Shown here piece by piece: positions 6,550-32,250 of a stretch of 64,000 nt of DNA. Source of the stretch: Rhodothermia bacterium. Its GTDB lineage: Bacteria > Bacteroidota > Rhodothermia > Rhodothermales > UBA2364. Below the pieces are notes generated by a model. The model had not been told where the DNA came from and made no database searches. It saw only the letters and a program-made list of their open reading frames with translations. Each line of letters starts with the position of its first letter. Positions within the stretch are counted from its first letter, which is position 1. The stretch spans positions 128,511 to 192,510 of the forward strand of contig JAFLBZ010000005.1 of assembly GCA_017303715.1 (NCBI GenBank), written 5' to 3'. The translations under genes and the position numbers were made by a program.

Positions 6550-6676
6550 TAACCACCATCGCTTTAACAAATGGCTATTTTTTCTGGAGGTATTTCATTT
6601 CCCAATCATATTGAATATCTTCCGGTGTTTTACCATAATGACCATAAATAAACAAATCAAAAACAGGAGAAATACA

Positions 6677-6994: not shown

Positions 6995-7034
6995 GTTTTT
7001 CTAAAGGTTTTTTGCCAAAAGCACACAAGTAAAA

Positions 7035-7067
7035 AGGGGACGCTCAAGTCAAGAGCACCCCTTTTTT
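7035..7067. terminator. Rho-independent-type hairpin flanked by an A-run and a T-run (bidirectional)
   Basis: aaaaGGGGacGCTCaagtcaaGAGCaCCCCttttttt lies between convergent genes ending at 6994 (+) and 7083 (-). Confidence 0.6.
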
Positions 7068-7082
7068 TAATGGAAACACTGG

Positions 7083-7754
7083 TTATCGAGCCAAGCCTTT
7101 GTCCTTCCAAGCGGCCAACGTCCCAAGTGGGATTTTATCTAATGCCTGATAGAGTATGGCAAGCGGGACATTATCCCCTACAACTTTAACAATAAAACGC
7201 TCCGCAACCACAACATCCACTTCGCCAGTTTGTGTGTCCGAGCGGTATTTTTCGCGACCCGGATAACCCTTAATCGTTTTTGTACGCTCGGAAGTTGTTT
7301 CATTCTCACGGTCAATCTGGGCGTACAACCAACCAGCATGAATGGCTTTAACGCTTCTTAGCCCTCCAGAATCGTACAGGTGCATGTTGATTTCTCCTTT
7401 TTGTCCTTCATAAACTGCATGTGCCTTGGATAAACCATATCCTAAAATGGCCGTTCGCTCGCCACCGGCGTCTTTTTTGTTATACCCCCCCAAACGCGCA
7501 GGGAACAATTCCTTCAACTCCCTAAAATCAACAGGTTCTGGCCGCTTGATCACTTCTTTTAAGTCTTTTTCTGCCTGTTTAACTTCAGGAGCCACCTCTT
7601 CACCAATTCGTTTCGCTTCCTCCGCCAAACGTTTTGCATCCTCCTTAGCTTGTTGGGTTTCCTGCAACACTTGACGCGCTTCTTGGCGTTCAGCCTCAGT
7701 ACATCCGGTAACGATCAATAAGAAAACACCCAGAATTAAAATCGTTTTTTTCAT
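7083..7754 (-). CDS. Lipoprotein, unknown function (family A; paralogue of 36545..37201)
   Basis: The signal peptide has a lipobox (LLIVTGC). The C-terminal half aligns by eye with 36545..37201: GEVDVVVAERFIVKVVG...LAAWKDKG versus GEVSSLVAGRFVVSVDG...LTNWKDRG. Confidence 0.65.
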   Translation of the reverse strand: MKKTILILGVFLLIVTGCTEAERQEARQVLQETQQAKEDAKRLAEEAKRIGEEVAPEVKQAEKDLKEVIKRPEPVDFRELKELFPARLGGYNKKDAGGERTAILGYGLSKAHAVYEGQKGEINMHLYDSGGLRSVKAIHAGWLYAQIDRENETTSERTKTIKGYPGREKYRSDTQTGEVDVVVAERFIVKVVGDNVPLAILYQALDKIPLGTLAAWKDKGLAR

Positions 7755-8082
7755 ATCTCTTCTTCATTAGTTTAGTGATAAAACATCCATACGTCCTTCC
7801 CCTTGTCTGGTTTCGGATATCAAACAGATCGCACCAAGATTTTTATCGTGGCTTCTGAATAAAGGTCATATAGGGCTAAAAAGAAGATTTTTTGCGCGAT
7901 GTCTGGTAGCAATGTTGCAGTTAACTGGAGGATTGTCTGGATTTTGTCTTGCTCTAAAGCCACATTCGCACCTAATGAACATGCGGTAATTACGAAAGCG
8001 CTTTTTAAATTAAAGGGAGTCATTTAATGGTTACCGGTCAAACTGGTTACACCAAATCTTTAACTTCAAATACGCAAAAGTG

Positions 8083-9999: not shown

Positions 10000-10037
10000 G
10001 GCAAACCTGACTCAGTATATCTTGTTTGATTGAGAAG

Positions 10038-10073
10038 CCCGATTTATTCCGGTTTTGGCCTGAATGAATCGGG
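10038..10073 (+). terminator. Long hairpin downstream of the T9SS repeat protein gene
   Basis: cccgatttattc-N12-gaatgaatcggg is a 12-bp stem with one mismatch, 40 nt after the stop at 9999. Confidence 0.45.
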
Positions 10074-10449
10074 TTAGTTCTTTTGGATTTTACCATATGT
10101 TCTTACCCTTATGTTGGTCTTAACACATTGAAATACTCAATAATTTGCGGCTATTCTCTTTTTATTGGCTGTCTTTTTTTTAGTACTTTGTAAAGAGGAT
10201 TAACTTCATTCAAACGTAGCCGCTTTATCTTGTCTTCTTTTCTGATTCTAAGGATTCTTTGATTCACATACTCGACTTAAATATAGATTAAACAATAACT
10301 TGAGAAAAACTGCCTATTCTCAAATGATCCTTTTATAAAAAACCCGCAAATCACTTCACCCATATACAAGGAATTTGCTTAAATTAAAGAAAGTCACAAA
10401 CATTTGCTTGGCAGCCATTTTTAATAACGTAAATAAAAAGGCGACTAAC

Positions 10450-13400
10450 ATGGCCAAAATCTTAAAATACCATTCATTTTTTACAGGTATTTTGCTGGTT
10501 GTCTTTCACCCCATTTTGCTAACTGCACAAAATCCTTCATTTTCTTTCGAGCAAATTACAATTCAACAGGGACTCTCCCACAATACCGTATATGCCATTC
10601 TCCAAGATCGTTATGGCTTGATGTGGTTTGCCACCCACAATGGTCTAAATAAATACGATGGGTATGGCTTTAAAAACTACAATACCTCAACCAGATCAGA
10701 CCCCAATTTTGAAGGGCGAATAATAAGCACTCTTATCGAGGATCGTTCCGGCAATATTTGGGTAGGCACACAAAATAAAGGCATCAATGTACTTTGGGCA
10801 GCGACCGGAAGATTTATGGCATGTAGATCCCATTCAGTTTTATCCGCACTTGCCAATACATGGATTACCCGAATTTATGAAGACCGAAGTGGCTCCATCT
10901 GGATTACAACGATTGGGAAAGGCATCTTTACATATGACCCCACTAAAAATAGGCTTAACCAATGGAGTAAAACCAATAAAAAACTGAATAGCAATCATGC
11001 CTTCGATGTCATGCAGGATGCACAAGGTCGTATGTGGGCCGTAACCGACCAGCCTACCCTTTCTTTGTTCTCTTCTTCTAAGCAGCGTTTTTCATCAATC
11101 CCTATTGATCCAACCCAACAAATAAAACTTTTGGGCTATCGAAAGGTTCTTCGGGCTGCAAAAAATGGCACTTTATGGATTGGAACGGAACGGCAAGGCA
11201 TTTTTCAATTCAACCCATATGACAATCAGCTACAACATTACCCTTTAGATGCCGCTAAAAATTCCTATAATGAAGTTCGAGACATAGAATTTGCTCAAAA
11301 TGGAAGCATCATGGTCGGAACCGACGGTGGCGGAGTCTATTTCATACAGCCCGGAAACGCAAACATCGTTTCCTTACAGAAGGACGTTACACGGTCTGGG
11401 AGTCTTAATACCAATGCCCTCTACGACCTTTATCTTTCAAAAGACAACAATCTATGGATTGGCACCTATAATGGCGGAATCAATGTGCATAAATCAAGAA
11501 AACTACGATTTGAAAATTTTACCCACACCGGTTTTCATGATGGGGAATTGAGTCATCCATCCGTATTAAGCATCATCCAAACCAAAAATGGAAATATTTG
11601 GATGGGAACCGATGGTGGCGGCCTTAACCGCCTTGACCCCTTGACCCGAACTTTTTCCGCCAAGACACATCAGTCCAAAACAACCACTTCTTTGGCGGGT
11701 AATGTCGTCAAATCTTTGTATGAAGCACCAGATGGACGTATTTGGATCGGCTATTTCGGGCAAGGATTAGAAGTTTTTGATCCTAAAACAGGCAGTATCA
11801 AAAGAATTAACAAGCCAATCAATACGCCAGCATCGTTATTGGATGGCAACATTTGGAGTATCTCTGGCGCTCCGGATGGTAAACTTTATATAGCCATTTT
11901 AGGGGATGGGCTAATTGTTTATGACCCAACTTCCGAAACCCTTAACCATTATAAAGCAGGTTCACCAAATGCCAAAAACCTTCCATCCGATGACCTCATG
12001 TACGTCCATCGTGACCGAAACAATCGGGTTTGGATTGCAACAAGGGATCGCGGTTTGGTCTTGTTTACACCGGAAAATGGCCAATTTAAACAGTTTAAGT
12101 CTAATACAGGTGATCCCAATAGTTTGCGCGGCGCCGAAGTAAGGGTAATCTTTGAAGACCATAAAGGGGGTATTTGGGTGGGGACTGAAGACGGTGGACT
12201 GAACCAATGGAAAGGTGGAGACCAATTTTGGAATTATAATACCCACAAAGGGCTACTTTCAGAAAGCGTAATGGGCATCCAAGAAGACAAAGATGGTTTT
12301 ATTTGGGTTAGTACGATTCCGGGACTTTCTCGCATAAATCCCAAAACTGGATCAATCGAGAACTTTAATTTCCACCACCACGCTCAACCAAATCAATTCA
12401 ACCAAGCGGCCATATTGTTCAACCAATCGGGAAAACTCATGGTCGGGGGGATTAATGGGTTAATCATGCTTAAACCAAGCGAAGTCACACAATCAACCTC
12501 CATGCCGCGTGTACGCCTAACCGAATTGCGCATATTTAACGACATGATTCTCGCAGGAAAGACGTCCTCCGGTAGAACCATTTATGAAGGAAGAATAGAA
12601 GAGGTTAAAGAAATCAACCTTTCCTATTTAGACAATGCCTTTTCCATAGACTTCGCAACATCGGATTTAAGCGACCCCCAAAACAACCGATTTGAATATA
12701 AGTTAGAAGGGTTTCATTCCCACTGGCAACAATTGGAACTGCCGAGGCACTCGGTGAACTTTACCAACTTAGAACATGGAAGCTATATTTTTCGCATCAG
12801 AGGGACAAATAGCATGGGGATTTGGAGTGACAAAGAAACCTTTGTAAAAATTAATATTTCACCGCCTTTCTGGAAAACACTTCCTTTCCGTATTTTTCTG
12901 TTCATACTTTTTGGGATTTTGCTTTGGCAAGGCAACCGCCTCTTGCTTCATCGTCGGGAAAGACATCTTCGGGAAAAAATGATGGAGTCAGAGCGGGCTT
13001 TCCTTCAATTAAAAAATGAGAAGCTGGCCTCGGATTTAGCTGCAAAAAACAACCAATTGGTCTCTATGAGCTTGCAGATGGCTCATAAAAACGACTTCTT
13101 GAACAAGCTAAAACGTGAACTCAAAGACCCACCACCAACTCAAGATGTTCCACAACCAAGCCAACAACAAGTGATCAAACTCATTGATGCCGAGGTGCGG
13201 GGAGAAGATTTTTGGGAACGGTTTAATGCCTTCTTCGAGGAAACAAACAATGCATTTGCACAAGAGCTTAAACGTAAACACCCAGATTTAACCGCAAATG
13301 ACCTCCGCATCTGCTCCTTGATGCTCATCAATGTGAATACCAAAGAAATGGCCTCAATTCTTAATATCAGTCCAAAAGGTGTTGAAAAAAGCCGGTATAG

Positions 13401-13503
13401 GGTTAAGAAAAAGCTCGGCCTCTCCGCCGAAGACGATCTCGCCATTTATCTTAAGGGGTTCGGAACTATTAACGAGAGTTCGGACGAACTAATCAGTAAA
13501 TGA
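10450..13503 (+). CDS. One-component regulator: periplasmic two-component-regulator-propeller repeats + Y_Y_Y domain + TM helix + coiled coil + LuxR-type HTH
   Basis: The ATG at 10450 gives a signal peptide (MAKILKYHSFFTGILLVVFHPILLTAQ). Repeated IWVGT/LWIGT..GL propeller motifs are present. The TM segment is LPFRIFLFILFGILLW. The C-terminal HTH is LTANDLRICSLMLINVNTKEMASILNISPKGVEKSRYRVKKKLGL. Confidence 0.8.
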   Translation: MAKILKYHSFFTGILLVVFHPILLTAQNPSFSFEQITIQQGLSHNTVYAILQDRYGLMWFATHNGLNKYDGYGFKNYNTSTRSDPNFEGRIISTLIEDRSGNIWVGTQNKGINVLWAATGRFMACRSHSVLSALANTWITRIYEDRSGSIWITTIGKGIFTYDPTKNRLNQWSKTNKKLNSNHAFDVMQDAQGRMWAVTDQPTLSLFSSSKQRFSSIPIDPTQQIKLLGYRKVLRAAKNGTLWIGTERQGIFQFNPYDNQLQHYPLDAAKNSYNEVRDIEFAQNGSIMVGTDGGGVYFIQPGNANIVSLQKDVTRSGSLNTNALYDLYLSKDNNLWIGTYNGGINVHKSRKLRFENFTHTGFHDGELSHPSVLSIIQTKNGNIWMGTDGGGLNRLDPLTRTFSAKTHQSKTTTSLAGNVVKSLYEAPDGRIWIGYFGQGLEVFDPKTGSIKRINKPINTPASLLDGNIWSISGAPDGKLYIAILGDGLIVYDPTSETLNHYKAGSPNAKNLPSDDLMYVHRDRNNRVWIATRDRGLVLFTPENGQFKQFKSNTGDPNSLRGAEVRVIFEDHKGGIWVGTEDGGLNQWKGGDQFWNYNTHKGLLSESVMGIQEDKDGFIWVSTIPGLSRINPKTGSIENFNFHHHAQPNQFNQAAILFNQSGKLMVGGINGLIMLKPSEVTQSTSMPRVRLTELRIFNDMILAGKTSSGRTIYEGRIEEVKEINLSYLDNAFSIDFATSDLSDPQNNRFEYKLEGFHSHWQQLELPRHSVNFTNLEHGSYIFRIRGTNSMGIWSDKETFVKINISPPFWKTLPFRIFLFILFGILLWQGNRLLLHRRERHLREKMMESERAFLQLKNEKLASDLAAKNNQLVSMSLQMAHKNDFLNKLKRELKDPPPTQDVPQPSQQQVIKLIDAEVRGEDFWERFNAFFEETNNAFAQELKRKHPDLTANDLRICSLMLINVNTKEMASILNISPKGVEKSRYRVKKKLGLSAEDDLAIYLKGFGTINESSDELISK

Positions 13504-13515: not shown

Positions 13516-14103
13516 CTAATTTGATTGTAGCTTCGAATAAGGTGTAATATGAAGTTCTTGGGTCAACCTATTTGCAAACGCATTCAATGCAAGGTCTTTG
13601 GCGATTGGTTTGACAACTTGCCAAACAACCAATAACACACTCCCAACGGACGTTGGAGGCGCAAGTTCAACGGCCTGTGGCGTTATAACGGTTCTTTCTA
13701 ATTGGCCACGCAAGGCATCCATCCTTGTCAGATCATTTGTGTACGTTAATGACATGATAGGTTTACCAAACTTATAATTACGAATAGATTGATGTAAGCT
13801 CAATAATGTGGCCTCATGAACCAAGACTATCTCATCGTATTTTTGGATGGCCTTTGCTTGTTCTGCATTCGGTAGTGTTTTTATTTTTCTTCCAAATTGT
13901 TCCGTCTCTTTTTTGTTCATCTCTAAACGATTAATAAGCGTTGTATCCACCTTTATGACTAAGTTTTGAGCCAATCGGAGGGTAACAACCACTTTTCCTG
14001 TCGTTTTTGATGAAAAAACATCACTTGCTTTATTAAAGACTTTACAACCTGAAAGGGTCAAAAGACAAAAAGCACTTATCAAATAAAAAGATTTTTTTTT
14101 CAT
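13516..14103 (-). CDS. Small lipoprotein, family B (paralogue of 14157..14690 and 35464..36030)
   Basis: The lipobox is LLTLSGC. It aligns by eye with 35464..36030: RLA..IK.D..IN.L...KAI..Y..IV.VH...I..Y..G.PI. Confidence 0.6.
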   Translation of the reverse strand: MKKKSFYLISAFCLLTLSGCKVFNKASDVFSSKTTGKVVVTLRLAQNLVIKVDTTLINRLEMNKKETEQFGRKIKTLPNAEQAKAIQKYDEIVLVHEATLLSLHQSIRNYKFGKPIMSLTYTNDLTRMDALRGQLERTVITPQAVELAPPTSVGSVLLVVWQVVKPIAKDLALNAFANRLTQELHITPYSKLQSN

Positions 14104-14156
14104 GTTGATTAATTCATTTTTTCGGATTTAGTTTTGGCATAAGTCATTCCTGACTT

Positions 14157-14690
14157 TCATTTATTTTTCGAGCTTTCCAGCTCATTAAAATTAATTATTT
14201 GCAAATCAACCGTCAAAACCTCTGCAAAATAAGCCAAGACCATGCTACGTGCTGGCGCTTTTATTGCTTGATAAATAGAAGCCGAAATTGCAGATGGGTC
14301 TTTCATCGCTTTAGGCTTTAGCAAGCCCGACTCATTCATCCTATCAAAGAGAATTTTATAGTTAAGTTGAATATTTTCAAAAAAGGTATTAAACCTACCA
14401 ACCTTTATAGTCGTTCCAATTTTATACGCTAATATATCTTTTTTAAGGGCCAACAACCCCGCTTTCTGTGCAGTTTGAATATTTTGGTATAGTTGGGTAT
14501 ATTCCCCTGCTTTATTTGGCCCTATGTTTTTAAGGATCCAGCCTAGTGCTTCTGTATCATTCTTAAACCTTTCAAAAGAATCAACAACTTTGGGTTCTAT
14601 CCGAACAACTTTTCTATGCATGAGGTGGACACCATCAATTCTACAACCTGTGAAAAGGGACAATACAATTAAGGCTATATATTTTTTCAT
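14157..14690 (-). CDS. Small lipoprotein, family B (divergent paralogue)
   Basis: The lipobox is SLFTGC. It has the same length and layout as 13516..14103, and the C-terminus matches: IYQAIKAPARSMVLAYFAEVLTVDLQI versus VVWQVVKPIAKDLALNAFANRLTQELHI. Confidence 0.55.
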   Translation of the reverse strand: MKKYIALIVLSLFTGCRIDGVHLMHRKVVRIEPKVVDSFERFKNDTEALGWILKNIGPNKAGEYTQLYQNIQTAQKAGLLALKKDILAYKIGTTIKVGRFNTFFENIQLNYKILFDRMNESGLLKPKAMKDPSAISASIYQAIKAPARSMVLAYFAEVLTVDLQIINFNELESSKNK

Positions 14691-14765
14691 ATTTTACCTC
14701 AATGATTTAGCGTGTTTAAGGTTATTAGATATAAACATGTTTGTTAAAGTCCAATACTTCCTTAT

Positions 14766-15590
14766 TTAACTTTTTACGACTAATGCTTTCCTGAAAATAG
14801 TAGCAAGGTTTTTGTAGGGTAAAAACCCTTTACCACTTATCTCCCACAATATTTTTTCAGGATGGTAAGCCATGAAACCACCATCATATTGACGATCATC
14901 ATACCCTGTCAATACAAGTGTAATTTCCTTCATACTGGGAAGTACCTTGCCATCAAAACCAGAAGATACAGTAAAGAACTCTTCTAAACTTTTTTCATTT
15001 AAAACCAACTCAACAATGATAAGTGATTTTTTATTAATTTCATGCCGTAGTGACTTGATAAGCTGTATTTCGGATAGCCCACCAATATCCATATTTTTAA
15101 CTTTAATGTCCTTTTGAGCCATTTGTTCTACATTTTCAATAATATTATCAGAACAAAATAGCCCTACCTGGGACGAAGGTACAAGACCTTTAAACTCGAC
15201 GACTTTTTGCAAAGAGTCCCATGCAACATTTTTAGTGCAATCCGCATAATTAATGGCCATTTTATGCAACATACCGGGAGAAAAAACAAGCATTTCTGGT
15301 TTTTCAGTAGCGTGGGTATTTATCCAACTAAGTGTGCTTGCAAAACTTATTGCAACGGCTTTTTTCATGTATTCTGGCGCCCCTAACGCAAAAACGGGGG
15401 TTTTCTCAAAATTTGTTACATATGGAGGAAGTCCTTCATCGTCAAAGATGATTCCTGTTGGTTTTGGAATTGTATCTTGCAACGAAGATGACTTATATCG
15501 TAGTTGCGAAGCAACTTTAAAAGCTGGACGAGTAGTTGTGCCACATGCAATAAGCCCAAAAAGTAATGGGCAAATAAGGAAGTTACGCAT
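14766..15590 (-). CDS. Lipoprotein resembling a catalytically inactive papain-like (C1) domain
   Basis: The lipobox is FGLIACG. Blocks shared with the neighbouring C1 peptidases are FSPG and LVLTGYDDRQYDGGFMAYHP versus HAVTVVGYDDQKDGGAFEIMNSWG. The Cys-motif position (CTAWS) reads ASTLSW and the His position reads E. Confidence 0.5.
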   Translation of the reverse strand: MRNFLICPLLFGLIACGTTTRPAFKVASQLRYKSSSLQDTIPKPTGIIFDDEGLPPYVTNFEKTPVFALGAPEYMKKAVAISFASTLSWINTHATEKPEMLVFSPGMLHKMAINYADCTKNVAWDSLQKVVEFKGLVPSSQVGLFCSDNIIENVEQMAQKDIKVKNMDIGGLSEIQLIKSLRHEINKKSLIIVELVLNEKSLEEFFTVSSGFDGKVLPSMKEITLVLTGYDDRQYDGGFMAYHPEKILWEISGKGFLPYKNLATIFRKALVVKS

Positions 15591-15781
15591 AATTGAAATG
15601 AGTTTAATGAATTGAGTTTGTCACAACAAAAGACAGTAAACACTAAAGTACAAGAACAACAACTGTTTTTGTCATGAGATAATTGCGAAGTGAGAGGTAT
15701 TAAGTGAAAAGATATTTTAACAATTAGCATCTTAGTAAACATAAATATCAATTCACGTTTTGTATTTTGAATTATTTCATA

Positions 15782-17236
15782 TTATTCAACCTCCATTTCC
15801 AATATTAAAACAACGAGACCTTGTTCATTTGACTTCACCCTGAATGATATTTTTTCTTGAGAATATTCAATTTTGGCATCAGGAATTCGTCTTGATAGTA
15901 ATACTCTATTAAGTTTTTCTGAAATAGTACCTGTTTTTTCTTGTTTTAGTAAAGACATTATTGCATCAAAATCCAATTTTTCAGTGGAATATAAAACAAT
16001 AAAATAATCCGTTGTCTTAAAGTCACTCGCCTCAAATACATGCTTTTCGCTTGGAATAGCCGTCTCATTTATTAATTCCCCAAAACTTTTATAGTTCATA
16101 TAAGGATCTATATTTTCCTCATATGGAAACAATTTTGTTATTTCACCTCTTAAGTCTGACCCTATAGCATAAACAAATGCAGGTTCACTATTTTCTATTA
16201 CAAGACGATATTGTAATTGCTGGGGAATAGGTTTTTCGGTACGGTAATGACTTTGTATGATGCGAGACAGCCTTGGCGCCCCATATTTTTTATTAGATAT
16301 TGTTTTAATAACCCTTCCATACCTATCTTCAACCCTAAATGAGCCACTTAATGTTTTCGTTGGTGTGGGCAAATGATTGCGTTTTGGAATTAATTCAATC
16401 GCCATATCTGTAAAATGAGCAAAGTCATCGTATTTTATCCACCAAAATCCTTTATCCCCCCACGCTGTTCCCCAGCTGTTCATGATTTCAAAAACGCCTC
16501 CATCCTTAGTATCATTATAACCGACAACCGTCATCGCATGCCCAATAGTACCGCTTTCCCCGACTGGTTTCCATGCCCCAATTTGATAGTTCCTTAAACT
16601 TTCCCATGCCTCACGGGTAAAACTCATTCCAATCATGACCGGATACTTTTGAGCCAGTGATTTTTTAACATTTCCAACTTTTTTAGACAGATCTCTTTCA
16701 TTGATATCAAATAATCGAGCATAGCCTTCTAACTTGGAAAATTCCCAATTCTTAATAGACGGCAACTCATGATCTTGTGGACAATCAGACCTAATTTCTG
16801 CCATACGGGGAGCGCCTACATTTTTTAAGGTTTCTAATATTGGCACCAAATCCCCTCCTTGGCTACACGTTTCATCTGCTGGAAAAGACAGTCTATAGAT
16901 AGACCCCGCATTATACATCTCACGGCTGATCACGTTAGGCGATCGCCAATTTCGATTTTGTGCCTCAAGAATTACACGGGCATGAGCCGCAGACCATGCC
17001 GTACAAGTTTCGTACTCACCTTGATCGCCCGGAGTTGGGGCAAAAGGACGAAGAGAAATTTCTTTTGGCAGATTTTCACCACTCCTTGTGGTAAATGAAA
17101 TTTTTTGAGGTAGTCTTTGATAAGAATCAATTGACAATTTAGTGGTAACAAGCCCCTGGGAAAACAAAAGATTTACCTCTAATGTCGTAGTCAGTATAAT
17201 GACAGCCCAACAAAATATTTTCTTTCCTAAAATCAT
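15782..17236 (-). CDS. Secreted papain-family (C1) cysteine peptidase with a DUF4384-like C-terminal domain
   Basis: A signal peptide is present. In QGEYETCTAWS the Gln is 6 residues before the Cys, as in papain. GHAMTVVGYNDTKDGGVFEIMNSWGTAWGDKGFWWIKY supplies the His and the Asn-Ser-Trp-Gly block. The C-terminus PAFVYAIGSDLRGEITKLFPYE..YFIVLYSTEKL matches the DUF4384 pattern. Confidence 0.8.
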   Translation of the reverse strand: MILGKKIFCWAVIILTTTLEVNLLFSQGLVTTKLSIDSYQRLPQKISFTTRSGENLPKEISLRPFAPTPGDQGEYETCTAWSAAHARVILEAQNRNWRSPNVISREMYNAGSIYRLSFPADETCSQGGDLVPILETLKNVGAPRMAEIRSDCPQDHELPSIKNWEFSKLEGYARLFDINERDLSKKVGNVKKSLAQKYPVMIGMSFTREAWESLRNYQIGAWKPVGESGTIGHAMTVVGYNDTKDGGVFEIMNSWGTAWGDKGFWWIKYDDFAHFTDMAIELIPKRNHLPTPTKTLSGSFRVEDRYGRVIKTISNKKYGAPRLSRIIQSHYRTEKPIPQQLQYRLVIENSEPAFVYAIGSDLRGEITKLFPYEENIDPYMNYKSFGELINETAIPSEKHVFEASDFKTTDYFIVLYSTEKLDFDAIMSLLKQEKTGTISEKLNRVLLSRRIPDAKIEYSQEKISFRVKSNEQGLVVLILEMEVE

Positions 17237-17251
17237 ATTTTTTTTAAATGA

Positions 17252-18688
17252 CTATTTAATATCCATTTCAAGAATCATCATGACCACATCTTTCCCTTTA
17301 CTTTTTGCAGTAAATGACACTTTAGTTTTATCAAACCGGACATTGTCATCTTTTAGGAGACGATCACCCAATACTTTGGATAATCTTTCGGCAAAATTCC
17401 GACCTTGTGTTGTCTTTACTTGGGCAATAATCGCATTAATATCCAGCTCTTCTTTTGAATATAATACCGCCAGATAATCCGTCCCGCCTCCAGCAGAAGT
17501 AGCCTCAAAAGCAAAATCCTCACCGGGTAAAGAGATTTCGTTCTCCTTTCCGGTTATTGCTGCACTAACATAATCCCCATTTTCGTCTTGATATGGAAAC
17601 AATGTATTTATTTCATTGGTTTTATCCCCACCGATAACATACATAAAAGCAGTCTCATTATTTTTAACGAGGAGGCGATAAGGTGTTCCTGCGTTGATTT
17701 GGCTTTTTACTTTGTATTGACTTTTTTGTAGTCCAACTAATTTTGGTGCACCGTACGATAGGTTATATTGCGTATTCAGTTCTTTCCCATTTAGATCAAT
17801 AAGTCTAAAAGACCCCGCCAAATCAATTGTATTTGTTTTTTCTGAAATGGCAATCATTTCATACGCCTCTTTAACATTCAAAGCAAAATCATTGTATTTT
17901 ATCCAGATATAGCCATTATTTGCCCATGCTTCCCCCCACGAGTTCATGATTTCGAAAGCCCCGCCATCTTTTTGGTCATCATACCCGACAACGGTGACAG
18001 CATGTCGCACATTCCCACCGTCCAAGGTTGCTTGCCATACGTGTTTGTTGCTGGGTTTTAATAAGGACTTTCCACAACTGTCACAATATAGACCTACAAT
18101 AACGGGATTACCTTGAGAGAGTGCCAATTTTACAGCATCTATTTTCGCCTGTTGACTGGATTCTGGCTTAAATAGCCGATTGTATCCGGCTATTTTAAAT
18201 CCTTGAGCTTCATTTAAAAAAGGCAACGCCTCGCTCATATCTACACAATCTTTACTAAAACTTCCTTTTGTTGCAATTCCTTTACTTTGGAGATTATCTA
18301 ATGCAGCCCAAATATAGATGCCCTCAGAGCAATTAACATCGGAGGGATCTTTTGTTAGCGCATAAATGAATCCTGGAGAGAATGCTTTTTCTGATATTGT
18401 GGACGGGTTACTTATTTTCTCTTGCCGTGCATGAAGGATGGTTCTTGCTGCATACCCCACAGACCATGCCGTGCAGGTTCCGTAATTCGCTTGATGCCCG
18501 GGCTTTGGTGCAAACTGTTTAATAGATGCCCTCTCTGGTACTTTATCATAGGTATTCGCTGTTCTTGGTGCTGAGTAAGCGATTAAACGATATTTATTCT
18601 CGTCATATTTTGCCCCTGTCACATTAAATTGCGCCGATACAGCAGGGAGAGTAAACAGGAAAAATATTAATAATAAAAGCTGTTTCAT
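17252..18688 (-). CDS. Secreted papain-family (C1) cysteine peptidase with a DUF4384-like C-terminal domain (tandem paralogue)
   Basis: The signal peptide is MKQLLLLIFFLFTLPAVSAQ. Catalytic motifs are QANYGTCTAWS and RHAVTVVGYDDQKDGGAFEIMNSWGEAWANNGYIWIKY. The C-terminus is TAFMYVIGGDKTNEINTLFPYQ..DYLAVLYSKEEL. Confidence 0.8.
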   Translation of the reverse strand: MKQLLLLIFFLFTLPAVSAQFNVTGAKYDENKYRLIAYSAPRTANTYDKVPERASIKQFAPKPGHQANYGTCTAWSVGYAARTILHARQEKISNPSTISEKAFSPGFIYALTKDPSDVNCSEGIYIWAALDNLQSKGIATKGSFSKDCVDMSEALPFLNEAQGFKIAGYNRLFKPESSQQAKIDAVKLALSQGNPVIVGLYCDSCGKSLLKPSNKHVWQATLDGGNVRHAVTVVGYDDQKDGGAFEIMNSWGEAWANNGYIWIKYNDFALNVKEAYEMIAISEKTNTIDLAGSFRLIDLNGKELNTQYNLSYGAPKLVGLQKSQYKVKSQINAGTPYRLLVKNNETAFMYVIGGDKTNEINTLFPYQDENGDYVSAAITGKENEISLPGEDFAFEATSAGGGTDYLAVLYSKEELDINAIIAQVKTTQGRNFAERLSKVLGDRLLKDDNVRFDKTKVSFTAKSKGKDVVMMILEMDIK

Positions 18689-18760
18689 AAGAAATCTATT
18701 TTGAGTGATTTAGTGGCATTGGGAACGATAATCAGGATAACATTATTGCTCCCTTAAAAC

Positions 18761-18778
18761 ATCCCTTATAATAGGGGT
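18761..18778. promoter_or_regulatory. Candidate operator, ATCCCT-N6-AGGGgT (one mismatch), ~80 nt upstream of the C1 peptidase pair
   Basis: atccct tataat aggggt lies in the 18689-18920 intergenic region. The same half-sites and spacing occur at 24006, 24207 and 29283. Confidence 0.45.
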
Positions 18779-18872
18779 TTTCAGATTATGGTTCTCGCCA
18801 TTTCGCAGTACTTTTTTTACTTTCCAAATGTTATGAAAGAAAAGCAATGTATCCGAACGTGGTGATATCAAG

Positions 18873-18909
18873 TTTTGGGGCATACTACCCGCAGTAAAAT
18901 GCCCCAAAT
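18873..18909. terminator. Strong hairpin just downstream of the caspase-PEGA gene
   Basis: tttggggcat-N15-atgccccaaa is a 10-bp perfect stem 12 nt after the stop at 18921 (minus strand). There is no clear U-tract on the minus strand, so terminator function is uncertain. Confidence 0.4.
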
Positions 18910-18920
18910 AATTTTCATCT

Positions 18921-20891
18921 TTAGAAAGAAGCTACAATACTAGCGCCTTTGATTGAAGGATTAAGGTGTATAGACACCTTTACCCGCTCACTTAAAACCT
19001 TTTCTAAATACTTGTTATAGTCCATCTTTACAATGCGACCAATTTCAAAGATTGCAGATAGACCCCAAATAGCGCCTAAGCTTGGGACAGCGTATTGTGC
19101 AATATTGTATGCACTTTTTACGTTAGCATTTTGCTCCTTTTCCAATTTTGCCGCTTCTTTGTTGTATTGATCTTCAGCAAAGGGCCGTCCATATAAAATG
19201 AGACCTGCTGCAAAACTTCCTCTTAAGAGAAATTTAGTACCATGGCCAATGATGTCTTTGCGAAATCTTCCTCTGGCCTCTTCCTCTGGTGTAATTTCTA
19301 GCCGGACTGTTTCTTGCATTGTTTTTGATTCTTTAACATCAACGACTAAAAGTTTAGGGGTATGTTTAGGCTTTGTCAGAAGAATCCGTTGTTCCCCGTA
19401 CCCTAATTCAATATTGAGGGGTGTTTTCCCGTGAACTTTATCTTTTAAGGTGACAACTGCTCCATCTGGGATGGTATATAATTGGAGTAGTGTAGATATT
19501 TTTTCCAGAACGAACTCGAAAGATTGTTCATCTTGTGTTAAGTCTATTGAAGTATTTTGGATAGGCTTGTATCCTGAAGCGTCAACGGTAATCACATAGC
19601 GCCCTTTTTTAAATTCCTTGCTTGTAGAACCTGTTGAGATCAATTCATTGTTGATCGTAATACTTGCATTTTCTGGTACCACTTTAAATCTAACAAGAGT
19701 AGTTTCTCTTGATAGATTAATCTCAACAATTAAATCCTCATCCGGTTTTATCTCAACTTCTTTGTATTCTGTATTATACCTATCCTTACGCACCTCAAAT
19801 TTATACAAGCCGGGATCTATCCTATATTCAAATGTATTACTTGTTGCATAACCTAATTGTTTACTATCTAAAAAAATGCGTGCATTATCAACGTTAGTTT
19901 TCAAAGTAATTTTTGACTTAAATGCTTGTTTTGAACTAACATCCATAAGTATAGGATTTTCAACAAGCATTTCCTCCAATCTTCGAGGTGTTAGTTCGAA
20001 GAAAAAGCTACCGTTATCCGGACTAAATGCACCTTCGATTGGAGTTTGTTTTCCCCCTTTCATTTTGGCGTAATAAGGTACACGAGCCATGATATATTGG
20101 AAGAGTTCTTTGGAAATAACGATATTATCCTTATTTTCGTCAGCCTTACCTTTTTCAAGCCCCTCGAGTAGAACATACATCAAAGCACTGTGTTGCCAAT
20201 CTGCAGACTCAACAACTTCTTCATCCGCAGAACCTGCTGTTATAATTTCGCGACTTTTTTGAGACCAAACATTTTTCAAGTATGCACGTGTAAACTCTCC
20301 TCCACTACCACTCCTTGTTGTCGCCAGTCCACTATAACAAGCATCTATTAAAAATAGAACATGTTTGGGAATAAACTGGTCAGAAAAGTCTCTAAGTTCA
20401 TTCATTTTAACGGATGTACCAAAGAGAGACTTCGTATCAACGTCATGATTTAACAAAAAACCGAGTGGTTGATCCTTTCTACCACCTGTCTGGCCATGAC
20501 CAGCATAATAGATGAGTAAGGATGAATTTTCGGAAACGCTGTCGTTTGTAAATCTTTCAAGAGTAGAAATAATATTTGATCTCGTAGCATTTTCATCTAA
20601 CAAGATAAATATATTATCTTCTTTATATCCAAATTTATCCTTCAATAAACGCTTCATTGCTACAGCATCTTCTGCGGCATAAGTTAAAGGTCTAACATTG
20701 GAATCTTGATATTTATTAATTCCGATCAAAACAGCGTATCTCTCATCGTATGTTGAAGCCATATCTACTGATGATAAGACCCCTTCCGTAGAACTGCCTG
20801 GTGGTAATGTGTTTGGATTATCTTGTCCTAATACGTCTTGCGACTTCAAGGCTATCAATAAAAAAAACAACGTTAGTATGTAAGATTTCAT
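18921..20891 (-). CDS. Secreted caspase-like (C14) peptidase + three PEGA domains + C-terminal domain ending in Phe
   Basis: A signal peptide is present. The caspase motifs are YAVLIGINKY, the His motif LLIYYAGHGQ and the Cys motif LFLIDACYSG. The PEGA-like units are NARIFLDSKQLGYA, ENASITINNELISTG and DGAVVTLKDKVHGKTPLNIELGYG. The last residues are IKGASIVASF. Confidence 0.8.
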   Translation of the reverse strand: MKSYILTLFFLLIALKSQDVLGQDNPNTLPPGSSTEGVLSSVDMASTYDERYAVLIGINKYQDSNVRPLTYAAEDAVAMKRLLKDKFGYKEDNIFILLDENATRSNIISTLERFTNDSVSENSSLLIYYAGHGQTGGRKDQPLGFLLNHDVDTKSLFGTSVKMNELRDFSDQFIPKHVLFLIDACYSGLATTRSGSGGEFTRAYLKNVWSQKSREIITAGSADEEVVESADWQHSALMYVLLEGLEKGKADENKDNIVISKELFQYIMARVPYYAKMKGGKQTPIEGAFSPDNGSFFFELTPRRLEEMLVENPILMDVSSKQAFKSKITLKTNVDNARIFLDSKQLGYATSNTFEYRIDPGLYKFEVRKDRYNTEYKEVEIKPDEDLIVEINLSRETTLVRFKVVPENASITINNELISTGSTSKEFKKGRYVITVDASGYKPIQNTSIDLTQDEQSFEFVLEKISTLLQLYTIPDGAVVTLKDKVHGKTPLNIELGYGEQRILLTKPKHTPKLLVVDVKESKTMQETVRLEITPEEEARGRFRKDIIGHGTKFLLRGSFAAGLILYGRPFAEDQYNKEAAKLEKEQNANVKSAYNIAQYAVPSLGAIWGLSAIFEIGRIVKMDYNKYLEKVLSERVKVSIHLNPSIKGASIVASF

Positions 20892-20951
20892 GAAATTAAA
20901 GATTTAAAATGTGATCAAGAAGTTTTGTAATAAGTGTCAGACTCAGACTAT

Positions 20952-22649
20952 TTAATCAAGTACTTTAACCAGTCTAAAGCCAATATTGGCATTTTTTTTA
21001 TTGGGGTCAAAAAAATACCTATGCTCTAACCCTTTTGCTTCATGTATAAAGGAGCCTCCACGGATTACTTTAAGTGGGTATCCAGTTTGTACATTATTAA
21101 CAGGGTCTATATTTGGCGCATTTTGATAGTATTTACCATCATACCAATCCATTGTCCATTCCCATACATTGCCAATTACGTCAAAAATTTCCCAATTATT
21201 TGGCGGGTAATTTCCAACTGACATACTACTACCTACTCCACTTATAGACGTCGTGCAATCGGCACAATTTGCTCTACCAGTGCCTATGAATTCTCCCCAT
21301 GGAAAACGATCCACACTTCCAGCACGTGCTATATATTCCCATTCAGCCTCGGTAGGTAATCTATAGCTATGTATATTTTCTTTAGCATTTAACCGCTTGA
21401 TAAATTCTTGAACTTCATACCAAGATATATTTTCAACTGGATTCGATAGGTTACTTTTATTTTTACTGGGGTTATCTCCCATAACCATAAGCCATTGTTC
21501 TTGTGTAACTTCATATTTCCCTACATAGAAATCATTTGTGATTATAATCTCCTTTCGTGGTGACGAATCAGATTTTTCATCTTCCAGACTTCCCCTCATA
21601 AACACACCTTTATCTATCAAGACAAATTCTATACCGTAATTATTTTTAATATATTTGGGATATATATTTTCTTTTTTTGGATTTTTTACATTTTTTTTAT
21701 TGTTAATGGTAATGTTTATTGAAGGTTTAGGATCAATAAATGAAACTTGTGTTTTGGGTTTAACTAATGGCTCTTTTGGAGTATTTAAATCAATTTTTTC
21801 TTTGGCTTTTGGCTTAAAATAAAAATCGGAAAAGAGAATTCCTGAGCAGTCTGGGATTTGACCTCTTTCAGTAATGCTGCTTACTTTAACCGAAACTTTT
21901 CTACAGATCTCGTCCACTCCTACCCCTTCCTCCAAAATAGCGCCAGCAAGAGCCTCCGTAAAAACACCATTCTGGGCATCTTCGTATTCCCGTGCAGTTC
22001 CATTTGGACGGGTTCCGTAGATAATTTTCGCATTAACGACTTGATCCAACCCGACATTAAGACCACTTTGCCACCCAGCAACTCTTAGGGCTGGCAGTAC
22101 ACGACAAGCATCTAGAATAAGAATTTTAGTTATGTCTTTGGCTTTCTCGGCAAGTTTCCGTTGGATGTCTTCAATTGAGAGCGAGCCTTCAGCCATTCTG
22201 TCTGGTCTGTCAGTGGCGGCTTCAATGCCGGCCAGCCAATTCCCTGTTCCATATTGAAAACCATGGCCAGCAAAGTAAAAAACAACCGCTTCTTCATCTC
22301 CTTTAACCTTGCCCATAAACTGATCTACAGCATTTTGCATGCCCGACCTTGTTTGATTTACCGCCTTGATAACCGTAAAACCCAAATTCCTTAACGTCTG
22401 CTCCATCAATAACACATCCTCTTCAGGCTTACTCAGTTTTGGTAGGTAGCGATATTGTTCATTTCCCATAAGGAGGGCAAGCCGCTTATTAGCGCCTGTA
22501 GGCTTCACAATGGGCGCTCTCTCCACAAATTTGCGGCTTTCCTGGGCTGAGACTGTTACATAAACACTAAAAAACAATATATAAAAAGCTTTATTTATCA
22601 ACTTTATCAAGACTTTTAATCTTAAAATACGCAGATTAGCATTATACAT
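20952..22649 (-). CDS. Secreted caspase-like (C14) peptidase fused to an FGE/SUMF1 (formylglycine-generating-enzyme family) domain
   Basis: A signal peptide is present. The caspase motifs are LALLMGNEQY, VVFYFAGHGFQ and ILILDACR. The C-terminal FGE-type motifs are FYVGKYEVTQEQW, PVENISWYEVQEFIKRLN, YRLPTEAEWEYIARAGS, NVWEWTMDWY, VIRGGSF and GFRLV. Confidence 0.8.
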   Translation of the reverse strand: MYNANLRILRLKVLIKLINKAFYILFFSVYVTVSAQESRKFVERAPIVKPTGANKRLALLMGNEQYRYLPKLSKPEEDVLLMEQTLRNLGFTVIKAVNQTRSGMQNAVDQFMGKVKGDEEAVVFYFAGHGFQYGTGNWLAGIEAATDRPDRMAEGSLSIEDIQRKLAEKAKDITKILILDACRVLPALRVAGWQSGLNVGLDQVVNAKIIYGTRPNGTAREYEDAQNGVFTEALAGAILEEGVGVDEICRKVSVKVSSITERGQIPDCSGILFSDFYFKPKAKEKIDLNTPKEPLVKPKTQVSFIDPKPSINITINNKKNVKNPKKENIYPKYIKNNYGIEFVLIDKGVFMRGSLEDEKSDSSPRKEIIITNDFYVGKYEVTQEQWLMVMGDNPSKNKSNLSNPVENISWYEVQEFIKRLNAKENIHSYRLPTEAEWEYIARAGSVDRFPWGEFIGTGRANCADCTTSISGVGSSMSVGNYPPNNWEIFDVIGNVWEWTMDWYDGKYYQNAPNIDPVNNVQTGYPLKVIRGGSFIHEAKGLEHRYFFDPNKKNANIGFRLVKVLD

Positions 22650-23319
22650 TTAGAATTACTTTAATTTTGAAGAAAAAATTTATCAGTAAAACAGATAAGA
22701 CATACTATAAAGAAGACAGTAATATCGCTTTATCTACCATAATAAGATAAAAAAACCAGATTAACAACATCAAACAAACCCGTACCATGAATATTAAGTT
22801 AACATTATTCTGTTTTATTAAGATATTTTAAATAGAAAACAAGGTCTATCAGCACCCAGTTTATATGTAAAGGCACGTCCTTGTCTTGGATAAATACTTT
22901 AAATTAAATGACTTAATCACCAGCAAACATGTCCGTCGAGCGGTGCGGAAAGAAAATCGCAATAAACACTTGTAGCGAATGTTTAGTGCAAATTACAGTT
23001 ATGGCATTAATACCAATTTGGATATTGGCCTTCTTGACTGGTTAGAACAAAATGGTGGGCAATCGTAGAAAAAAGCAAAAGAGTATTTCTATGTGTTTAC
23101 TGCTTATTATAAAAAAATACAAATATTATCTTTTTTAAGCATTACTTCCGCCGATGTCACATTTATGAAATACTCTTTTGCTTAAGCGCAGTGACAAATC
23201 AGTACGCAAGAATTTATTAATTTTATGTTTTTTTAATAATTTTGCTACATTCAGAATAAGATATCCCCTATTTAATGTCAAGGATATAAAGAACACAACT
23301 CTACAATTTCTTTTAATCC

Positions 23320-23967
23320 TCACAATCTTTTGGGATGAATCAAGCCCTCTTGGATTGCTTTTACGACAGCTTCCACGTTCGAGCCAGCATGTAGCTTCTG
23401 GTAGATATTTTTAACATGGGAATTAACGGTATGGGTACTTATGAACAGGGTTTCTCCGATCTCTTTTTGAGAACGTCCCTTTGCCATCTCTTCCAAAACT
23501 TTTTTCTCTGCATTGGTGAGTTTTTGCCCTTCAGACCGATTCTCGGCCTTTCGGAAAGATGACAACACCCGCTGCGCCACTCTTGGCGGCATAGGCATAC
23601 CTCCCCCCACAGCCAAGTCAATCGCGGCAAGCAAATCCACATCCGATGCATCCTTTAGTAGATAGCCAGATGCGCCTTCTTCCAATGCCCTAAAAATGGA
23701 CTGGTCATCATCATTTATCGTGAGCATTACGATCGTCACCAGTGGCCATTTCTTTTTAAGATGGCCAACACAAGAGATGCCATCCATTGCCCCCATATTG
23801 ATGTCCATCAAAATAACATCTGGCGATTGTTGGTTCTTTTGTGCTTCAAGTGCTTCCTCTCCCGATGCAAAAGCGCCAGTACAGATCAGCAATTTCGAGT
23901 CCTCAATCAAAGAAAGTAGGCTTTCTCGGTAGCGTTTATTGTCTTCTACGGTCCAAATCCGAAGCAT
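23320..23967 (-). CDS. Response regulator, NarL/FixJ family (REC + LuxR-type HTH)
   Basis: The REC domain shows VEDN..DVILMDINM..VMLT. The HTH is LTNAEKKVLEEMAKGRSQKEIGETLFISTHTVNSHVKNIYQKL. Confidence 0.88.
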   Translation of the reverse strand: MLRIWTVEDNKRYRESLLSLIEDSKLLICTGAFASGEEALEAQKNQQSPDVILMDINMGAMDGISCVGHLKKKWPLVTIVMLTINDDDQSIFRALEEGASGYLLKDASDVDLLAAIDLAVGGGMPMPPRVAQRVLSSFRKAENRSEGQKLTNAEKKVLEEMAKGRSQKEIGETLFISTHTVNSHVKNIYQKLHAGSNVEAVVKAIQEGLIHPKRL

Positions 23968-24005
23968 CTTTTTTCTTTAGAATAGGGAACTTGTATGTTC
24001 ATCAA

Positions 24006-24023
24006 ATCCCTTAATTTAGGGAT
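24006..24023. promoter_or_regulatory. Candidate operator, exact ATCCCT-N6-AGGGAT, ~45 nt upstream of the RR gene
   Basis: aa atccct taattt agggat tt sits in the RR / lipoprotein-HK divergent intergenic region. Confidence 0.5.
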
Positions 24024-24206
24024 TTTTTTATTTTCAATATAGGTTACGGGTTAATCAAGTTGATTGAAGGCAGTTTGAATGTCATGACTGGGTTTTGCAT
24101 CCCATTGTCTTTCGTTGTGACCATCCAGCAGTAGATACGTGTTTTTCTCCTCTACAAATATTCATGACCAACCCCTTATTTCTTTATTTGCATCAATAGC
24201 CCTAAC

Positions 24207-24224
24207 ATCCCTTATTTTGGGGAT
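24207..24224. promoter_or_regulatory. Candidate operator, ATCCCT-N6-gGGGAT (one mismatch), ~50 nt upstream of the lipoprotein-HK operon
   Basis: atccct tatttt ggggat at 24207-24224. The downstream ORF starts at 24272. Confidence 0.45.
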
Positions 24225-24271
24225 TGCAAATTATGTTACTTCGTTTGTAAATTTCCCAAACCCACAAAATC

Positions 24272-24955
24272 ATGCACTTTGTTTTTTTCTACACATATTT
24301 TGGTTTATCCAGCAGTATAGGCTTGATATTTCTGTATATACTTTCTGGTTGTAGTCATCCAATACAAACAAAGACCTTTACTAACCAAGGAAACTTAGCG
24401 GATAATGATACTTTAGAGGTTGCCTCTGCTTCTTTGCTTAGAATTGAAGAGGGATTAGAAGCTCAGGATGCTACACGCATTCGTGAGGGGATCGAGACCC
24501 TTATGCAAAACAACATCTTGATTATATCTACCGAGGTACGTCCAAACGGTCAATTTACCTATAAAAACCTTCTAAACGAAGCCAAATCTTTCCGTAACAC
24601 TCCACCTGATGAGTTAGCAAAGATAGACAGATTGCTGGAGGTTTTAGAAAGGCCACAACAACCATTATTAATGGTAAATGTTTGTCGTGCCAAACTTACC
24701 AAGAAAAATGAGACCTCTTCCAATTGTACCATAAAAACCTTCAGAAATGGAGATTTGAGGGTTTTAGTTCGGACGGTACCCCAAGACATTGAGTGGCGTT
24801 TAGAGGGCAACAATCTTACTTCTTGCACAGGTTGTTGGCAAATCTGGAAAGGCTCTGGGAGAATCCAATGGATCACGCAAAAAAACCAAACACATCTTGT
24901 TTTGATACGCAATTTAAGTTCAGTGTCTGGCACATTCCTGCTTACATGGAACTAA
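24272..24955 (+). CDS. Putative lipoprotein, translationally coupled to the sensor kinase
   Basis: The hydrophobic N-terminus has the lipobox ILSGC. Its stop overlaps the kinase ATG (ATGGAACTAA, 24946-24955). Confidence 0.5.
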   Translation: MHFVFFYTYFGLSSSIGLIFLYILSGCSHPIQTKTFTNQGNLADNDTLEVASASLLRIEEGLEAQDATRIREGIETLMQNNILIISTEVRPNGQFTYKNLLNEAKSFRNTPPDELAKIDRLLEVLERPQQPLLMVNVCRAKLTKKNETSSNCTIKTFRNGDLRVLVRTVPQDIEWRLEGNNLTSCTGCWQIWKGSGRIQWITQKNQTHLVLIRNLSSVSGTFLLTWN

Positions 24956-32202: not shown

Positions 32203-32250
32203 CACCTAAAATCACCTCCCGATCTCGCTATGGTGATTTAAACCCCAATC

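Follow-up and report, generated by a model that had tools for sequence, protein, structure and literature searches.

Tandem papain-DUF4384 peptidase genes in a Rhodothermia bacterium belong to an old family that is recurrently paired with genes for predicted exported caspase homologues

The stretch of DNA analysed here (the window) comprises 64,000 nucleotides (nt) of contig JAFLBZ010000005.1 from a Rhodothermia bacterium (positions 128,511 to 192,510) and contains two adjacent papain-like peptidase genes, designated PapA and PapB. PapA (17252..18688, - strand; MBN8587513.1, annotated 'hypothetical protein') encodes 478 amino acids (aa) with a signal peptide, a papain (C1) domain and a DUF4384 module. 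Its tandem paralog PapB (15782..17236, - strand; MBN8587512.1, annotated 'C1 family peptidase') encodes 484 aa with the same architecture. The two proteins are 38% identical over 440 aligned residues, end to end (E 7e-98). A preliminary description of this sequence had reported two adjacent open reading frames (ORFs) of these lengths separated by 15 nt, and its coordinates, lengths and spacing proved exact. The spacer (17237..17251, - strand) reads TAG-tcatttaaaaaaaat-ATG, and because the gap is so short, co-transcription of PapA and PapB is plausible. The pair forms part of a run of seven same-strand (-) genes in the order CaspFGE, CaspPEGA, PapA, PapB, d274, d177 and d195. The N-terminus is hydrophobic in every protein of the run, and d274, d177 and d195 also carry lipoboxes.

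The first two genes of the run encode caspase homologues that are predicted to be exported. CaspPEGA (18921..20891, - strand), directly upstream of PapA, is a 656-aa protein with a caspase (C14) domain, three PEGA domains and a C-terminal tail (Pfam Peptidase_C14, PF00656, 67.8 bits against a cut-off of 21.4; PEGA, 70.7 bits). CaspFGE (20952..22649, - strand) has 565 aa and a hydrophobic N-terminus, and it combines a caspase domain (Peptidase_C14, 102.4 bits, same cut-off) with a C-terminal FGE-sulfatase-like domain (132 bits). The His-Cys dyad is present in both. As the preliminary description had held, these adjacent caspases lack DUF4384, for which neither gave a Pfam match. Against the NCBIfam model caspase_w_EACC1 (conflict-system caspases), the window caspases scored 87.9 and 55.6 bits, below the curated cut-off of 140, and searches of PADLOC, PHROGs and NCBIfam returned no specific system assignment for the cluster.

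PapA and PapB are members of Peptidase C1 by profile, catalytic residues and predicted fold, and peptidase activity is predicted for both. The papain-like catalytic domain of PapA spans approximately residues 50-283 (17840..18541, - strand), with conserved Q66, C72, H229 and N249, and it is preceded by a short conserved extension (residues 21-49, nt 18542-18628, - strand; G25, Y33, L42 and P51 conserved). In PapB, which has equivalents of these four catalytic residues, the papain domain lies at about nt 16382-17074 and the C-terminal module at nt 15785-16378 (- strand). Pfam Peptidase_C1 (PF00112) scored 38.6 bits for PapA and 42.7 bits for PapB against a gathering score of 20.7. Because the match covers only the C-terminal half of the model (positions ~118-206), we assign the two proteins by sequence to a divergent subfamily of Peptidase C1 (MEROPS C1A). 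The same profile matched 54 of 54 aligned relatives. Across the 84 C1 domains of the family, Q66 and N249 are retained in 84/84, H229 in 83/84 and C72 in 82/84 (PapA numbering), and the full tetrad in 82. The departures include members from two Cytophagales loci (L053 and L061) in which Ser replaces the catalytic Cys, accompanied in L053 by Gln for His; these may be pseudo-enzymes or may represent a switch of nucleophile. Two further cysteines, C120 and C148, are invariant in the 54-relative alignment and nearly so in all 84 sequences. A C120-C148 disulfide is therefore probable, and it was counted in favor of export of the family.

An AlphaFold model of PapA was obtained with a predicted local distance difference test (pLDDT) score of 90.2 and a predicted template modelling (pTM) score of 0.90. 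The best Foldseek match to its N-terminal two thirds was xylellain (3ois, E 2e-15), followed by procathepsin K and Lpg2622, and the papain-fold matches of this predicted structure as a group (xylellain, cathepsins) had E values of 1e-15 to 1e-11 with target TM-scores of 0.7-0.8. Pfam, alignment and fold model thus agree with the earlier claim of a papain domain with a complete Gln/Cys/His/Asn set. The N-termini of PapA and PapB are hydrophobic and signal-peptide-like as judged from sequence. No Pfam match to the Por_Secre_tail sorting domain was found in PapA, PapB or the two cluster caspases, from which it follows that PapA and PapB are not cargo of the type IX secretion system (T9SS). The same scan did find the domain in the window proteins at 8080-9999 and 32251-35046.

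The C-terminal module of PapA (17255..17839, - strand) was assigned to DUF4384 (PF14326). The Pfam match in PapA spans residues 333-413 (nt 17450-17692, - strand) with 24.1 bits (E 3.7e-5) and that in PapB reaches 19.6 bits (E 1e-3), neither attaining the gathering score of 27, and the alignments span nearly the whole 81-position model. PF14326 matches 51 of the 54 aligned relatives at E<=1e-3 (best 5.7e-12), several long relatives exceed the cut-off with 33-43 bits, and most homologues carry a precomputed PF14326 annotation. The preliminary assignment to DUF4384 is thereby confirmed at the level of the family, while in PapA and PapB individually the sequence match falls short of the threshold. 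Modelled alone, the C-terminal 195 residues of PapA (pLDDT 90.2) fold into a beta-sandwich and, after it, two helices and three strands. A Foldseek search of this isolated module against the PDB returned only generic immunoglobulin (Ig)-like sandwiches, with a best E of 0.017 and no solved relative.

The C1-DUF4384 architecture is old and common. With one genome scanned per species, relatives were encoded at 529 loci or more, mainly in Bacteroidota and also in Ignavibacteria, Rhodothermales, Spirochaetes and Rhodobacteraceae; of these, 80 were kept, and nearly all of the 80 align almost end to end with the PapA architecture. The genus Treponema is represented as well. A word-indexed protein search yielded 103 clusters, mostly annotated PF00112+PF14326 and none more than 39% identical to PapA. 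A profile search of 1.84 billion cluster representatives gave 3,075 clusters (50% identity) at E<=1e-30; the best 150 of these all lie below E 1e-123, and nearly all of the 150 cover essentially the full profile. The breadth of the family, in species loci and in clusters, indicates that the architecture long predates the locus in the window. A 2023 review of papain-family evolution left the multidomain prokaryotic C1 peptidases unanalysed (PMC10380794).

In order to examine the surroundings of these genes, profiles built from the window's own domains were searched against the six-frame ORFs of 82 related loci (of at least 529). A caspase ORF lies within 300 base pairs (bp) of the C1-DUF4384 gene in 51 of the 82. 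Of these adjacent caspases, 49 are on the same strand, 28 of them upstream and 21 downstream. Among the 57 loci where the flanks reach 3 kb or more on each side, a caspase is found within 300 bp in 36 and within 10 kb in 40. When neighbors were clustered over the loci, caspase was the sole conserved neighbor family. Such pairs are present in Bacteroidota, Rhodothermales, Ignavibacteria, Spirochaetes and Rhodobacteraceae, counted here as five phyla. Among the culturable carriers are Mucilaginibacter flavidus, Flavihumibacter soli and strains of Sphingobacterium, Maribacter and Ruegeria/Epibacterium. Gene order and partner type track C1 clades, an indication that the pair has been inherited as one unit. 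For an assumed genome size of several Mb and 28 caspase genes, we put the chance of adjacency at roughly 0.1-1%. The most caspase-rich genome known, that of one Saprospiraceae, has 28 caspase homologues (PMC3501461). The preliminary description had suspected a tie between the papain-like genes and the neighboring caspases, and the association is stronger than it proposed; it had also raised the prospect of an architecture that is common and unlinked to caspase genes, and common it is, but unlinked it is not.

Both members of the pair look active by sequence, since the His and Cys dyad is intact in all 66 caspase domains examined and the C1 tetrad in all but two of the 84 domains. In other genomes, a signal-peptide-like sequence stands at the start of nearly all partner caspases. 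The caspase assignments are borne out by Pfam, which also places MORN, DUF7477, TPR, Sel1, WD40, OmpA+WD40, PEGA and FGE-sulfatase among the partner modules. Two types of partner can be distinguished. In the first, a signal peptide and a variable N-terminal region (MORN, DUF7477, TPR, WD40 or OmpA+WD40) precede an Ig-like domain and a C-terminal caspase domain. In the second, the signal peptide is followed by an N-terminal caspase domain and then by Sel1, FGE-sulfatase or PEGA. CaspPEGA has a full-length relative in the caspase-PEGA gene of a Rhodothermales locus (L042; 33% identity over 658 aa, E 6e-110), which lies 111 bp upstream of a C1-DUF4384 gene, and the caspase-FGE architecture of CaspFGE adjoins C1-DUF4384 genes in two other loci (L033 and L040).

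DUF4384 is confined to the papain side of these pairs. A family DUF4384 profile matched 83 ORFs over the 82 loci; each belongs to a gene of the C1 family, and no partner caspase was matched. A search with the DUF4384 profile by itself returned 29 short proteins (107-241 aa) that give no architecture information; most come from short contigs and are likely fragments, and a few are stand-alone genes on long contigs. Caspase-DUF4384 fusions were also sought with a profile of the partner-caspase domain. No PF14326 was seen among the proteins listed, which are all <=429 aa, while PEGA, WD40, Sel1, Glucodextran_B and CHAT were; the fusion of caspase and DUF4384 in one protein is for this reason taken here from the literature. 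There, DUF4384 has been found fused in cis to orthocaspases (PMC8283722, PMC7475262), and among the accessory domains of cyanobacterial orthocaspases it ranks fifth in frequency (23 of 473; PMC8283722). Proteins with a trypsin-like domain, a pseudo-orthocaspase domain and DUF4384 exist as well (PMC6426788). In Csx30, which the caspase-like Csx29 cleaves, DUF4384 is one of the classes of C-terminal domain, and it has been described as often fused to protease domains (bioRxiv 10.1101/2022.08.17.504292). The statement in the preliminary description that DUF4384 is usually described as fused to caspases is therefore borne out as far as such fusions go (PMC8283722), but the domain is not specific to caspases and occurs with kinases too.

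We found no description of the C1-DUF4384/caspase pair in the open-access literature. A supplementary table of a 2012 metacaspase survey, which counted 23 metacaspase operons with other proteolysis domains, places a metacaspase of Ruegeria sp. TM1040 next to a 'peptidase C1A, papain' in a row without comment (PMC3501461). The partnership of an exported caspase with a papain-DUF4384 enzyme appears to be previously undescribed.

Several loci depart from the simple pair. In Flavihumibacter soli (L008, 11500-20237) four caspase genes stand in tandem behind the C1-DUF4384 gene, and the one scanned, which comes first, encodes a TPR-caspase; the expansion is on the caspase side and not on the papain side. 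In Mangrovibacterium (L001, 1361-14278) the C1-DUF4384 gene is preceded by an extracytoplasmic-function-type sigma factor gene, five separate FGE-sulfatase-domain genes, one of them short and weakly matched, and a small reverse-transcriptase-like ORF. A 370-aa caspase is encoded 1.7 kb downstream, so that the FGE and caspase parts reside in separate genes. Three caspase-less loci of Flavobacteriia (L045, L046 and L064) share a gene of ~167 aa directly downstream of the C1-DUF4384 gene, followed in L045 by a gene for a CHASE2-domain protein. CHASE2 is a known accessory domain of bacterial caspases.

On these grounds it is hypothesized that an exported caspase and a C1-DUF4384 enzyme form a functional two-protease module outside the cytoplasm, either periplasmic or associated with the envelope. 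We lean towards this reading, with reserve. A joint function is inferred because the pairing recurs across phyla and because DUF4384 is fused to caspase-type domains elsewhere, in the manner of a Rosetta stone. In such a module the caspase with its variable domains would serve to target or to initiate, and the constant C1-DUF4384 enzyme would be its partner; DUF4384 would act as a regulatory or docking module linking its carrier to a caspase-type protease. CaspPEGA and CaspFGE are the partners encoded beside PapA and PapB.

The arrangement is probably a proteolytic cascade in which the caspase homologue would process or activate a papain-like proenzyme, or the reverse; the direction we hold with less confidence than the module itself. 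A cascade is favored because classical C1 enzymes are made as zymogens (PMC10380794), because PapA has a conserved N-terminal extension of ~30 residues, and because its best structural matches include pro-forms. Orthocaspases cleave on the C-terminal side of basic residues (PMC6426788). A search of the N-terminal extension for a conserved Arg or Lys that could mark a cleavage site turned up one semi-conserved basic position (41-46% in each of two neighboring columns) and, where the catalytic domain begins, K/R57 (85%); these do not suffice to define a site.

Several observations count against this hypothesis. At 17 of the 57 loci with full flanks there is no caspase within 10 kb, the neighbors being unrelated housekeeping genes, and the C1-DUF4384 enzyme can therefore evidently exist without an adjacent partner. 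In the window, CaspPEGA and PapA are separated by a 232-nt gap that contains a strong hairpin (18874..18908, - strand), 13 nt past the CaspPEGA stop codon. The hairpin has a folding energy of -20.3 kcal/mol (z -3.47; 0 of 200 shuffles as stable). It has no U-tract behind it and was not flagged by the terminator scan; possibly it is a terminator or a processing site between the caspase and papain genes. Scans for sigma-70 promoters, intrinsic terminators and Bacteroidetes-type promoter motifs were all at chance level and lend no support to co-transcription with the caspases. No caspase fusion was found in the 10 unusually long C1-DUF4384 members in which one was sought, the extensions of which are Ig-like domains or a DUF900 alpha/beta-hydrolase. 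Given its occurrence with kinases, DUF4384 is no dedicated caspase adaptor. The pTM of 0.90 suggests that in the model DUF4384 packs on its own protease domain, and such packing would fit an intramolecular role at least as well as docking.

Some family members of about 1,000 aa (L042, 9860-12967; P0202 and P0218) consist of C1, DUF4384, Ig-like (Glucodextran_B-like) and DUF900 alpha/beta-hydrolase domains. The Ig-like type found in them also precedes the caspase domain in many partner proteins.

The main rival to a joint module is that caspases and papains are independent degradative proteases, secreted or periplasmic, whose genes share no more than their regulation in an island for proteolysis or nutrient acquisition, and that attack common external substrates without acting on one another, with DUF4384 as a substrate- or envelope-binding domain. 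We regard this as possible and the less probable account. It is in keeping with the ~30-38% of family genes that have no adjacent caspase, with an Ig-like DUF4384 sandwich that has no specific structural relative, with PEGA, OmpA, FGE-like and Sel1 as typical envelope- or ligand-binding modules, and with the window itself, where T9SS cargo with carbohydrate-binding module (CBM), fn3 or PKD domains and sensor regulators are found nearby. Co-regulation explains poorly, however, why caspase is the sole conserved neighbor, adjacent and on the same strand (0-250 bp) across five phyla, and why DUF4384 is recurrently fused to caspase-type domains elsewhere (PMC8283722, PMC6426788).

A second alternative retains the caspase and gives DUF4384 a mainly intramolecular task, as pro-domain or chaperone of the adjoining papain domain, from which the caspase would remove it without any docking. 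The pTM of the two-domain model implies a fixed packing between the domains, domain order and linker are conserved, and the zymogen nature of classical C1 enzymes (PMC10380794) is compatible with such a role. The linker is Pro-rich (PKP…) and has no conserved basic cleavage site, which speaks against removal at this point, and we judge this alternative to be somewhat improbable.

A cytoplasmic anti-phage or abortive-infection system, comparable to the gasdermin-protease, Craspase and STAND-caspase systems, is very unlikely. The caspase domains do match the generic PADLOC 'caspase' model, the caspase_w_EACC1 scores stay below the cut-off, and the variable repeat domains resemble the sensor modules of conflict systems. 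Yet every component is predicted to be exported, with a signal peptide or a lipobox, which makes cytoplasmic defense improbable; PapA and PapB had no significant PADLOC match; and Pfam scans of the cluster ORFs and of the flanking ORFs on both sides revealed no nucleoside triphosphatase (NTPase), gasdermin or CRISPR-associated protein. Least likely of all is the proposal of the preliminary description that DUF4384 was swapped from caspases to papain-like genes at this locus: local caspases without the module beside papains that carry it, and known DUF4384-caspase fusions elsewhere (PMC8283722), gave it some appeal, but it founders on the spread of full-length C1-DUF4384 proteins, which occupy 529 or more species-level loci and make up thousands of clusters at 50% identity, on the restriction of the module to C1-family genes (83 of 83 matches), and on the nesting of PapA and PapB within an old family in the neighbor-joining (NJ) tree.

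The proposed two-protease module can be compared with known systems. Xylellain (3ois), Lpg2622 (6a0n) and other short bacterial C1A peptidases share the papain fold and the Gln/Cys/His/Asn site of PapA, and the alignment of xylellain with the PapA model covers its whole 267-residue chain. Identity of xylellain and Lpg2622 to PapA and PapB is only ~20%, and the latter add a signal peptide, the 195-residue DUF4384 module and a caspase neighbor. The N-terminal extension of PapA may correspond to the N-terminal region of xylellain, which is reportedly involved in an unusual activation mechanism, to go by the title of the 2013 work of Leite et al. (cited in PMC10380794).

The staphylococcal sspABC and scpAB operons comprise V8 protease, staphopain and staphostatin. 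With an exported papain-like proenzyme beside an activating protease and small accessory genes downstream, they would offer the closest analogy for a cascade, although there is no sequence relationship and the upstream enzyme is a serine protease and not a caspase homologue. The lipoproteins encoded downstream in the window, d177, d195 and d274, showed no similarity to known inhibitor families, d274 being a dead papain paralog.

The same components co-occur in the cyanobacterial orthocaspase-DUF4384 proteins and in the alphaproteobacterial proteins with trypsin-like, pseudo-orthocaspase and DUF4384 parts (PMC8283722, PMC7475262, PMC6426788), and the latter also include a second protease, as does the C1-DUF4384/caspase pair. 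Those fusions are single polypeptides in which the caspase is often a pseudo-enzyme, whereas here DUF4384 is on the papain-like enzyme, the caspase dyad is intact and the parts are exported. In the type III-E Craspase, Csx30, some of whose C-terminal domains are of the DUF4384 class, is the functional partner or substrate of the caspase-type Csx29 (bioRxiv 10.1101/2022.08.17.504292). Craspase is cytoplasmic and RNA-guided, and Csx30 is not a protease, unlike the exported C1-DUF4384 enzymes. No CRISPR-associated protein was found by Pfam in the cluster ORFs and nine flanking ORFs (5026-13503 and 23320-35046).

Downstream of PapB, the same-strand run continues with d274 (14766..15590, - strand), a 274-aa lipoprotein (lipobox LIAC) annotated 'hypothetical'. 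On the sequence evidence it is a third, truncated and catalytically dead paralog of the PapA/PapB papain domain, without DUF4384. Residues 81-270 are matched by the family's own C1 hidden Markov model (E 3.5e-10), all 11 phmmer matches among the ORFs of the loci are C1-DUF4384-family genes, and hhalign against A1 gave a probability of 83%. The catalytic His is replaced (…EITLVLTGYDD) and NSWG has become YHPE. As a pseudo-protease, d274 may act as an anchor, decoy or regulator. The next gene, d177 (14157..14690, - strand; lipobox FTGC), and the last of the run, d195 (13516..14103, - strand), encode small paralogous lipoproteins (24% identity, E 2e-13). Neither d177 nor d195 matched any family in scans of Pfam, NCBIfam, PHROGs and PADLOC, and neither has a relative in the 82 related loci. 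Like the proteases they have been duplicated, which makes them candidates for cognate inhibitors or anchors.

In the NJ tree PapA and PapB are sisters (bootstrap 74/100), in a clade that also encloses members from Saprospiraceae, Aureispira, Cyclobacteriaceae and Melioribacteraceae. Of the 82 other loci, L073 alone has a second C1-DUF4384 copy nearby, and there it lies on the opposite strand; papain-family duplications are likewise rare in prokaryotes (PMC10380794). The tandem duplication is thus lineage-specific and rare. The preliminary description had proposed a phylogeny to date it; the tree establishes the sister relationship, and at 36-38% identity the duplication is either old or fast-evolving. 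The two papains predicted to be active, the dead papain lipoprotein, the two lipoprotein paralogs and the two caspases together look, by sequence, like a lineage-specific expansion in this Rhodothermia metagenome-assembled genome. Taken by itself, the tandem pair is an ordinary case of such expansion within a family that is common and already annotated in databases.

Beyond the run, a LuxR-type response regulator gene (23320..23967, - strand; Pfam Response_reg and GerE) lies upstream on the same strand and is a possible regulator. The cluster is bracketed by two further regulators, a Reg_prop/Y_Y_Y-LuxR one-component protein (10375-13503, + strand) and a Reg_prop/Y_Y_Y histidine kinase (24793-27906, + strand), and the two T9SS cargo proteins, at 8080-9999 and 32251-35046, are nearby. 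A third caspase gene (29431-32202, + strand), located 7 kb away, encodes a caspase with six PKD domains (923 aa), so that three differently decorated exported caspases are found within 12 kb. G+C content is 0.33-0.40 over ~14000-26000, which holds the protease cluster, against 0.42-0.51 (about 0.45) in the flanks, suggesting a horizontally acquired island.

A bolder extension of the two-protease hypothesis, which we regard as speculative and rather doubtful, is that the pair constitutes a widespread extracytoplasmic surveillance-and-execution system, equivalent in the periplasm to caspase cascades. Through its hypervariable module of repeat or lectin-like type (MORN, TPR, Sel1, WD40, PEGA or FGE-like), the exported caspase would recognise a foreign or damaged envelope component. 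It would then cleave the constant papain-DUF4384 proenzyme, the common executioner, which would degrade the invader or trigger autolysis of the envelope. DUF4384 would in that case be a general 'caspase-substrate handle', which would explain its fusions to caspases, Csx30 and other proteases.

To our knowledge, bacterial caspase homologues are abundant and almost none, least of all among the exported ones, has a known function or substrate. The noteworthy part of the present findings is accordingly the conserved partnership of caspase and papain-DUF4384 enzyme rather than the tandem pair. A constant partner together with a variable one across five phyla provides a testable hypothesis for orthocaspases, for multidomain bacterial C1 peptidases and for DUF4384. 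The partnership offers a defined candidate substrate or activator for exported orthocaspases, a possible role for DUF4384 in connecting proteins to caspase-type proteases, and a pair of genes amenable to biochemical work. The expansion in the window, with its two papains, dead paralog, two caspase types and two lipoprotein paralogs, could reveal how specificity is paired between the partners.

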